A stretch of 3,274 nt of DNA from Escherichia coli. Lineage in GTDB: Bacteria; Pseudomonadota; Gammaproteobacteria; Enterobacterales; Enterobacteriaceae. Shown here piece by piece: positions 2,110-2,629 of this stretch; position 1 is the first letter of the stretch, and each line of letters opens with the position of its first letter. The position numbers and the translations under genes were made by a program. The notes beneath the pieces were generated by a model that worked only from the letters and a program-made list of their open reading frames with translations, did not search any database and was not told where the DNA came from. Location: the NCBI RefSeq assembly GCF_003334405.1, contig NZ_QOWM01000035.1. The stretch is one strand, 5' to 3'.

Positions 2110-2417
2110 TCACGGAATCGGATATGCTTACTGAAGCTAAAAAAATGGCAGTAGAGATGATGTTCTGGCCTGCTTGTCCTGTAGATGATGATTATTGTTT
2201 CGACGCTATAATGTATACATCAGTTATTGACAAGAAGTTTGAAGATGAACATGGGGTATATCTTCATCAGGTTTACAAAGAACTATGCTCAACACCTGAA
2301 TTAAAAAAACTTCTAAAAAAGAAAGCAATAAAATTGATTGCTTTTAAGCACGATATTGATCTTGATTCAGCTAACAAGACTTTAATGAAAAATATGCTAA
2401 GGAGGATTGAAAACTGA
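2106..2417 (+). CDS. hypothetical protein (103 aa), third gene of the operon
   Basis: ATG 2106 overlaps the upstream stop (ATGA at 2106-2109), so translationally coupled. Stop TGA at 2415-2417. No family recognised. Confidence 0.55.
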   Translation: MITESDMLTEAKKMAVEMMFWPACPVDDDYCFDAIMYTSVIDKKFEDEHGVYLHQVYKELCSTPELKKLLKKKAIKLIAFKHDIDLDSANKTLMKNMLRRIEN

Positions 2418-2427
2418 AAAACTGAAA

Positions 2428-2457
2428 GTGATCAGGTTGCTGGAACAACCTGATCAC
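2428..2457. repeat. perfect inverted repeat with 12-bp arms and 6-nt spacer (GTGATCAGGTTG-ctggaa-CAACCTGATCAC)
   Basis: Read directly from the sequence. Not followed by a U-tract on the + strand. Flanked by AAAACTGA(A) direct repeats at 2410-2417, 2418-2425 and 2471-2479. Confidence 0.6.
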
Positions 2458-2491
2458 GTTATCGACAATCAAAACTGAATGAGGTTTTTAA

Positions 2492-2629
2492 ATGTCAACG
2501 CGGCAGATCGTACAGCTTGCTGATTCCCTTGTCAAAGGCTGGGAAACCAGAATTCCGGCAATGAAATTTAGTGAATGGGATCAATTCCGGTGGTGGTTAA
2601 ACTACCTGCAAGGGTATGAAATGTTTTAA
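2492..2629 (+). CDS. candidate small protein (45 aa), absent from the supplied ORF track
   Basis: SD GAGG at 2481-2484, 7 nt before ATG 2492. 45 sense codons then TAA at 2627-2629, followed directly by an intrinsic terminator. Product MSTRQIVQLADSLVKGWETRIPAMKFSEWDQFRWWLNYLQGYEMF is Trp-rich and not low-complexity. Confidence 0.35.
   Translation: MSTRQIVQLADSLVKGWETRIPAMKFSEWDQFRWWLNYLQGYEMF

Follow-up and report, generated by a model that had tools for sequence, protein, structure and literature searches.

A covarying hairpin ahead of an unannotated small gene on IncX4-type plasmids may form the 3′ end of a cis-antisense RNA

The palindrome described here lies at positions 2428–2457 of a 3,274-nucleotide (nt) stretch of Escherichia coli DNA (the window; contig NZ_QOWM01000035.1), between the stop codon of a hypothetical gene and an unannotated open reading frame (ORF) of 45 amino acids (aa). 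We find that it is a selected, folded nucleic-acid structure and that it belongs to the downstream small ORF, not to the upstream gene. The hairpin is rare, covaries among homologues and is linked to the ORF, and it is accompanied by a minus-strand promoter motif, by U-tracts on the minus strand only and by a conserved two-stem fold. Judged from the sequence, the palindrome is, on balance, probably the 3′ stem-loop and terminator of a cis-antisense RNA of ~85–90 nt that would mask the Shine-Dalgarno sequence and start codon of the small ORF.

The palindrome is composed of the arms GTGATCAGGTTG (2428–2439) and CAACCTGATCAC (2446–2457) around the loop CTGGAA (2440–2445), which confirms the perfect inverted repeat of 30 base pairs (bp) with 12-bp arms reported in a preliminary description of this DNA; an inverted-repeat search widens the arms to 15 nt at 93% complementarity (2425–2439/2446–2460). 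The same description held that such a repeat is rare by chance, and we agree: a perfect stem of at least 12 bp with a 3–8-nt loop was present in 4 of 2000 first-order Markov simulations of the window. It is the sole such stem in the window, and a single copy is found in the 32.6-kb plasmid of E. coli FDAARGOS_1288 (NZ_CP070012.1), which matches the 3,274-nt window at 100% identity. Folded as RNA, the palindrome reaches −18.6 kcal/mol on the plus strand and −20.0 kcal/mol on the minus strand (z about −7). The minus-strand form (SL-A, 2428–2457; z = −7.2) has 13 pairs, six of them G-C, the 12-bp stem and 6-nt loop being converted by a U-G closing pair to a 13-bp stem with a tetraloop.

Stems are replaced wholesale between clades and remain complementary (GTGATCAGGTTG, GGTATCAGGTTG, GCCGGATTG, GCCGGGCTG, ACCGGGCTG, GGCCAATCTG, GTGTTACATGGTG and CGGTTTATATG). 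Among 24 distinct homologous hairpin sequences, 91% of cells pair, 8 of the 12 pairs show double-sided change (55 cells), the covariation score was reached by none of 500 shuffles, and shifting the partner by 1–3 columns leaves pairing at only 23–47%. Loops are 5–7 nt long, those of 6 nt mostly reading C-N-N-N-A-A on the plus strand, and the stem is interrupted in locus L037. The loop is flipped in two lineages, TTCTAG of L022 (844–849) being the exact reverse complement of CTAGAA of L019 (1450–1455) and TTCCAC of L004 (1513–1518) a near reverse complement of the window loop CTGGAA; the L004 flip coincides with a homology breakpoint at the left palindrome edge, and the flips suggest template switching or recombination at the palindrome. 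G-U pairs are nearly absent from the stem (5 of ~290 cells), and this scarcity, together with the tolerated loop flips, fits a structure that folds on both strands, as a sense/antisense pair would.

Several other features of the palindrome were recorded. GATC (Dam) sites are positioned in both arms (2430–2433 and 2452–2455) and at 2506–2509, where the site overlaps the predicted antisense −10 element. Control by Dam methylation was considered and rejected, GATC being lost in the GGTATC and CAAATCGTA variants and so not conserved and probably incidental. An integron attC-like site was likewise rejected, since the palindrome shows no R′/R″ core-like GTTRRRY and is too short for such a site. The trinucleotide GGT directly precedes the plus-strand stem in L004, L005, L012, L020, L023, L032, L035 and L039 (AAA at 2425–2427 of the window); this flank, which reads ACC 3′ of the stem on the minus strand, is found across many unrelated clades. 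In L008, a further, larger A+T-rich hairpin (ATATAGAATGTATG-CAATAGC-CATATATTCTATAA, 268–302) lies ~40 nt upstream of the standard one, and a J-domain gene, not a toxin-antitoxin pair, comes after the small ORF.

The small ORF (MSTRQIVQLADSLVKGWETRIPAMKFSEWDQFRWWLNYLQGYEMF) occupies 2492–2629 on the plus strand, with the Shine-Dalgarno sequence GAGG at 2481–2484; homologues have GAGG or GGAGG 7–9 nt before the ATG. A hairpin is found upstream of the ATG in 33 of the 37 compiled loci (26 distinct hairpin sequences), the loop ending 37–51 nt before the start. Its position is kept behind at least six unrelated upstream genes, and it is present in L013 too, where no co-oriented upstream gene is annotated. 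Because the distance to the ATG is held whatever the upstream gene, we conclude that the hairpin tracks the small ORF.

By tblastn, the small ORF is present on 1133 plasmids (among them IncX4, IncI2, IncX6, IncK2/Z and Klebsiella IncFII/MPF_I types), and it is missing from the RefSeq annotation of NZ_CP070012.1 and of most of these carriers. Profile searches added relatives in Serratia, Pantoea, Erwinia, Pectobacterium and Photorhabdus, all described as hypothetical and without Pfam domains. Family members are 43–45 aa long, with one distant relative of 65 aa. Third codon positions vary freely while residues are kept across homologues, and on this ground we consider the ORF to be coding. The AlphaFold model consists of two helices (predicted local distance difference test score, pLDDT, 92), which are predicted to be amphipathic and contain charged residues; no transmembrane segment is obvious. 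No Foldseek match to the PDB was obtained at E ≤ 0.001, nor any match in NCBIfam, PHROG or precomputed Pfam. In every context recovered, the run of co-oriented genes ends with the small ORF, and next comes either a toxin-antitoxin pair or a gene on the opposite strand; a taxA, nikA or mobA gene and a relaxase gene lie 0.3–1 kb beyond the small-ORF unit. The distant 65-aa ORF belongs to L006 (CP088493.1, ~1610–1840), which has the same upstream gene and a variant hairpin, GGTATCAGGTTG-TGGGG-CAACCTGATACC, with a U7 tract on the minus strand; over its first ~24 residues (MSERILSAIHDVEKGGRPVFPLM...) the 65-aa ORF is similar to the small-ORF family, and its C-terminus differs. Full-text literature searches and papers on IncX, IncI2 and leading-region biology yielded no mention of this hairpin, ORF or RNA; the downstream hicAB pair has already been studied (PMC11878559).

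A second stem-loop, SL-B (2461–2499, minus strand), is formed from an outer stem between ATCGACA (2461–2467) and TGTCAAC (2493–2499, which holds the start codon) and an inner stem between AAAACU (2471–2476, within the third copy of the repeat AAAACTGA) and GGUUUU (2483–2488), so that the Shine-Dalgarno sequence or its complement is placed in or beside the apical loop. The conserved TTGACA box after the hairpin is accounted for by its pairing with ATGTCAA, compensatory variants being TCGACA/TGTCGA and TAGACA/TGTCT; reading the box instead as part of a plus-strand promoter was rejected, as its −10 element would put the start inside the ORF. The outer stem shows 26 G-U cells on the minus strand (equivalent to A-C mismatches on the plus strand) versus 4 the other way, these pairs being counted on a structure projected from the window sequence, so that the SL-B numbers are rough. 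RNAalifold returned no consensus structure from the raw MAFFT alignment of the antisense region, in which the outliers L037, L039 and L024 are misaligned.

Together, the two stems outline a predicted cis-antisense RNA of ~85–90 nt on the minus strand (2410–2500), with SL-B at its 5′ end carrying the anti-Shine-Dalgarno CCUC in the loop, SL-A toward its 3′ end and a U-rich tail. The predicted 91-nt RNA folds into two stem-loops at −30.4 kcal/mol (z = −6.2), its 5′ stem beginning 1–2 nt past the predicted start, and this two-stem architecture is common to every clade. Read from 2500 to 2410, the RNA covers the Shine-Dalgarno sequence and start codon (2481–2494). Rfam searches gave no family at E ≤ 1 over the window and, for the 171-nt region, only chance-level matches far below gathering scores.

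A sigma-70 promoter is predicted for this RNA at 2507–2535 on the minus strand, with TTGACA at −35 (2535–2530), a 17-nt spacer and TACGAT at −10 (2512–2507), for 10 of 12 consensus matches and a start near 2500. By position-weight score, all 19 representatives have their best minus-strand site, among the initial 66 nt of the ORF, at homologous ORF nt 13–16. These 19 sites score 9.9–13.6 bits and each exceeds 88–98.5% of synonymous recodings (p = 0.015–0.12), compared with 0–6.4 bits (p = 0.09–0.88) for the plus-strand controls and for the minus strand of seven other window genes. Outside the L018/L029 clade, in which the hexamer occupies a different codon phase, codon 7 always reads GTA, ATA or CTA, and the third positions adjoining it vary freely. 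The minus-strand promoter motif is, at the level of sequence, positionally conserved beyond codon needs.

The preliminary description also noted that, on the minus strand, the hairpin is followed by a U-rich run, and this proved correct (TTTCAGTTTT, 7 U of 10): directly 3′ of the stem the minus strand reads UUUCAGUUUU (7 U of 10), whereas the plus-strand equivalent, GUUAUCGACA, does not count as a U-tract, and the terminator scan lists the palindrome on the minus strand only. The tail in the window is the complement of a tandem repeat, and its U-rich (UUUCAGUU)n would form, with the palindrome, an intrinsic terminator in the window plasmid. Of 27 lineages, 9, with five unrelated stems between them, have a U-rich tail (5 or more U in 10 nt) behind the minus-strand stem, and none has one on the plus strand. 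The idea put forward in that description, that the hairpin may terminate antisense transcription, thus stands as the best-supported reading, favored by the strand-specific scan and the conserved minus-strand promoter motif.

From these features we infer an antisense RNA that is made, ends at the hairpin and represses translation. The RNA would start near 2500 from the sigma-70 promoter within the 45-aa ORF, run leftward, passing over the start codon and Shine-Dalgarno sequence, and stop at the palindrome, SL-A serving as its 3′ stem-loop and intrinsic terminator. Its 5′ stem-loop would display the anti-Shine-Dalgarno. Because the sequence is a perfect palindrome, a complementary mirror hairpin would form in the 5′ untranslated region (UTR) of the sense RNA. 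The complementary sense and antisense loops could make an initial loop-loop (kissing) contact that would progress to a duplex over the ribosome-binding site, and this duplex would block translation of the small protein, by analogy with FinP/traJ, Sok/hok and SymR/symE.

A number of observations weigh against this interpretation. The antisense RNA itself is a prediction, and the intercistronic hairpin at 1690–1714 in the same operon indicates that plain mRNA hairpins occur here too. About two thirds of lineages are without a minus-strand U-tract, including the abundant mcr-1 IncX4 type (L004) as well as L012, L018, L029 and L039; canonical termination is therefore not a universal role of the stem, which could act instead in 3′-end definition or protection or in loop-loop pairing, and termination is predicted to be a feature of some lineages, the window included. 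The SL-B excess of G-U pairs is owed mostly to a single clade, in a stem that is imperfectly aligned. For the palindrome, the balance of G-U to A-C cells favors neither strand, being 5 versus 12 in the full alignment with its misaligned outliers and 2 versus 3 in the curated alignment, so that it is uninformative for strand assignment. The per-clade promoter p values are modest and cannot be multiplied, the clades being related by descent, and the promoter match in the distant homologue L006 is weak (7.7 bits, p = 0.35).

The preliminary description offered two explanations other than termination, a miniature palindromic insertion with a target-site duplication and an operator for a dimeric repressor, and neither is borne out. 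The first drew on three copies of AAAACTGA around the palindrome. The tandem pair at 2410–2425 and the copy at 2471 are indeed present, so that direct repeats flank both sides in the window plasmid; a further copy occurs at position 34, the distant third copy is unremarkable in such A-rich sequence, and testing octamer recurrence by Markov simulation was uninformative, poly-A runs dominating the result. The left pair (copies at 2410 and 2418) is a variable-number tandem repeat overlapping the upstream stop (the TGA at 2415–2417 of ORF 2106–2417 lies inside its first copy) and encoding the U-rich minus-strand tail. The array belongs to the upstream gene module, and its copies number one (L006), two (the window and IncI2 L011), three (L002) or eight (L003), and match spans of 300–349 nt indicate arrays of 2, 3, 5 and 8 copies. 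It is absent beside the hairpin in L004, L012, L018 and others; L004, the common mcr-1 IncX4 backbone, has another upstream gene and no left AAAACTGA, and keeps the palindrome and everything rightward. The right copy (2471–2479) is conserved with the downstream unit, its AAAACU pairing with GGUUUU beside the Shine-Dalgarno sequence. The comparison of related loci for an empty site, proposed in the same description, was carried out with a synthetic query (left flank, one AAAACTGAA and right flank) against 72,556 plasmids, where an empty allele would be expected as the top-ranked single-piece match; none was seen: 87 records reached 80% coverage or more, and the best 30 of these were all two-piece, filled matches. 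With the left repeat variable or absent, the right copy part of a conserved stem, no empty allele and a single copy in the 32.6-kb plasmid, the notion of a mobile insertion with AAAACTGA(A) as target-site duplication is refuted within the data searched, and we give it practically no credence. As an operator, the palindrome has in its favor a perfect two-fold symmetry and a gene for an XRE-type helix-turn-helix (HTH) protein in the same cluster (707–934), 1.5 kb upstream. However, the half-sites (arms GTGATCAGGTTG and GGTATCAGGTTG–GGCCAATCTG) are not conserved but are swapped wholesale with compensatory changes, their spacing ranges over 5–7 nt and the stem of L037 is interrupted, all of which argues against a protein operator. 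No plus-strand promoter-like site lies within 2380–2490 to overlap the palindrome, the predicted minus-strand promoter is ~50 nt off, and the hairpin also occurs on plasmids with unrelated neighboring genes. An operator for a dimeric protein such as the XRE-type one is thus very unlikely.

A purely sense-strand role is a serious rival, although we consider it unlikely overall. In that case the hairpin would be a 5′-UTR or intercistronic mRNA structure of the small ORF without a functional antisense RNA, acting as a 5′ stabilizer after processing, as a 3′ exonuclease barrier or, with the stem that sequesters the Shine-Dalgarno sequence and AUG, in translational control. Both stems fold on the plus strand too (−26.6 kcal/mol, z = −4.6), the second pairing the start codon and leaving or embedding the Shine-Dalgarno sequence; plus-strand G-U pairs are seen in the palindrome of L015/L025 and L034 and in the second stem of L017/L035, and the second intercistronic hairpin and the lack of a minus-strand U-tract in most lineages, both noted above, suit it. 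It does not explain the conserved minus-strand promoter motif and invariant xTA codon, the U-tracts confined to the minus side or the minus-strand G-U excess of SL-B, and selection on one RNA strand would normally permit many more G-U pairs in a 12-bp stem. The stems are nearly pure Watson-Crick, as DNA hairpins would be, and loop flips are a signature of DNA-level template switching at palindromes, which would suit a single-stranded DNA (ssDNA) element on the incoming T-strand early in conjugation, whether a priming signal, a landing site for SSB or another protein, or a protective structure. The module is also always 0.3–1 kb from taxA/nikA/mobA-relaxase genes, and its side and orientation are those typical of leading-region genes (rule: PMC11541004). 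We regard this as improbable nonetheless, since the fixed distance to the Shine-Dalgarno sequence and ATG and the coupling to the start-codon stem point to gene expression, not priming. Known ssi and Frpo elements are ~100–330 nt, far above the 30 nt of this hairpin. Hairpins below −75 kcal/mol have been mined in earlier work (PMC12672017). Less probable again is a recombination junction, a hotspot for exchange of leading-region cassettes with no role in expression. Most of 838 plasmid matches, including all mcr-1-type IncX4 records sampled, do have the palindrome's first base (window 2428, query position 129) as their exact start, with another gene upstream, and the loop orientation is flipped in L004 and L022; a neutral junction, however, would not hold complementarity through full stem replacement or a fixed distance to the ATG, and the breakpoints fit just as well with the hairpin being simply the outer edge of a conserved functional unit.

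The predicted antisense RNA resembles several known systems. FinP, Sok and SymR are short two-stem antisense RNAs that start inside the target gene, cover its ribosome-binding site and end in a terminator hairpin. One parallel is to FinP/traJ of F-like plasmids, which is also plasmid-borne and near oriT, with a ~80-nt cis-antisense RNA whose promoter lies inside the 5′ part of its target. One of its two stem-loops is complementary to the target ribosome-binding site, the 3′ stem-loop and U tail form the terminator, the sense RNA bears mirror stem-loops for loop-loop pairing, and loops differ between plasmid lineages. The present case differs in having no sequence or Rfam similarity to FinP, in its target (a 45-aa protein on the leading side of oriT versus the transfer activator TraJ), in the lack of an identified FinO-like partner and in being predicted from sequence. 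With the type I toxin-antitoxin modules SymR/symE and Sok/hok it shares a short structured antisense RNA, here a predicted one, over the Shine-Dalgarno sequence and start of a small ORF, an antisense promoter just inside the coding region and carriage on plasmids; the protein, in contrast, is not hydrophobic, with two predicted amphipathic helices, and has no similarity to known type I families. Like a Rho-independent terminator, the minus strand has a 12–13-bp stem with six G-C pairs, a 4–6-nt loop and a U-rich stretch at once, but the U-tract is interrupted (UUUCAGUUUUUCAG), is made of a variable tandem repeat and is missing in most lineages that have the stem. REP/BIME-like or mRNA-stabilizing palindromes are similarly stable structures a few nt past a stop codon in polycistronic clusters, whereas this one is single-copy, at a fixed distance to the downstream gene and without a REP consensus. 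By analogy, the element may work like the FinP, Sok, SymR and CopA families; membership in the known antisense families is ruled out, as there is no Rfam match and the target protein is unrelated.

The window is a piece of an IncX4-type E. coli plasmid, with the replication origin on one side and hicAB-taxA-taxC on the other. It is matched by 703 E. coli records, nearly all plasmids, close relatives being typed by PLSDB as IncX4, conjugative and MOBP; no megablast match to the window was obtained in 50,697 phage records. The plasmid carries, in order, a replication gene with 22-bp iterons, a J-domain gene, three small genes, a 300-nt G+C-rich spacer and three more small genes, followed by the palindrome, the unannotated small ORF with its terminator, hicAB, ddp1/taxA and the gene for the TaxC relaxase. 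The last of these small genes, immediately upstream of the palindrome, encodes a hypothetical protein (2106–2417 in the ORF list, plus strand; annotated start 2124, WP_032233324.1) and is part of a variable cassette, WP_000854259.1 standing in its place in mcr-1 IncX4 plasmids. All window genes are co-oriented in the plasmid, and because they adjoin relaxase-accessory genes and point towards them the layout is that of a leading region, for which an orientation rule has been described (PMC11541004); the window thus appears to be the oriT-proximal end of a conjugative leading region. The AAAACTGA array is slippage-prone among otherwise near-identical plasmids. As it begins in the last codons of the upstream gene, its copy number leaves that protein unchanged, and extra copies lengthen the minus-strand U-rich tail. 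The small-ORF unit is closed by a bidirectional intrinsic terminator found in the terminator scan (2637–2657), which is predicted also to shield it from leftward transcription from the hicAB side.

Other elements of the region were noted in passing. The six to seven 22-bp iterons (ACCGAGGAAGCTCTCATGTTTA; L001 4119–4294), between the replication gene and the J-domain gene, are presumably the IncX vegetative origin. The 300-nt G+C-rich non-coding segment (970–1269) has a second, 100% identical copy 2075 nt upstream (L001 4895–5194), and a co-oriented gene group follows directly after each copy (the J-domain gene in one case, the gene at 1383–1682 in the other); the ssDNA fold of 940–1340 on the minus strand has z = −3.4, with no Rfam match. 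This segment could be a leading-region single-strand promoter or ssi-type element, or a plain recombination repeat. Some relatives align to the window in pieces spanning ~1.1 kb extra. The hairpin at 1690–1714 (AAATGCAGGG-GGGAA-CCCTGCATTT) is a second perfect one, with a 10-bp stem between genes 1383–1682 and 1735–2109; flanked by an A-run 5′ and a T-run 3′, it resembles a bidirectional terminator or attenuator within the operon. Directly after the terminator at 2637–2657, the hicAB promoter (2665–2693) is a perfect TTGACA-17-TATAAT consensus, and IncX4 hicAB is of the overlapping, terminator-less subtype (PMC11878559).

For annotation, the lesson is that a conspicuous palindrome with direct repeats is here no mobile element, the repeat being an ordinary slippage-prone tandem repeat. 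The module is of moderate interest, as it is common among plasmids of clinical importance and sits where a putative leading region comes closest to oriT: its carriers (more than 1,100 sequenced plasmids) include the mcr-1 colistin-resistance IncX4/IncI2 backbones and plasmids of Klebsiella, Serratia, Pantoea and Erwinia, and most of their records annotate neither the 45-aa gene nor any RNA. As a tentative idea, to which we assign a low probability, hairpin and ORF could make up an undescribed, widespread oriT-proximal control module, a 43–45-aa two-helix protein with a dedicated cis-antisense RNA, perhaps a conjugation timer or a type I pair. As a timer, the mRNA would be copied from the incoming transferred strand, while the antisense promoter would need the complementary strand, so that the small protein would be made only in the single-stranded entry phase and silenced after the plasmid has become double-stranded; alternatively, the two could form a new type I toxin-antitoxin pair. 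In either case, loop variation and flips might set lineage specificity, as FinP alleles do. By the leading-region orientation rule, the small-ORF module would be among the first parts to enter a new host, and how early leading-region genes are turned on and then off is an active question. Should the antisense RNA be real, the plasmid region closest to the transfer origin would gain a post-transcriptional switch.

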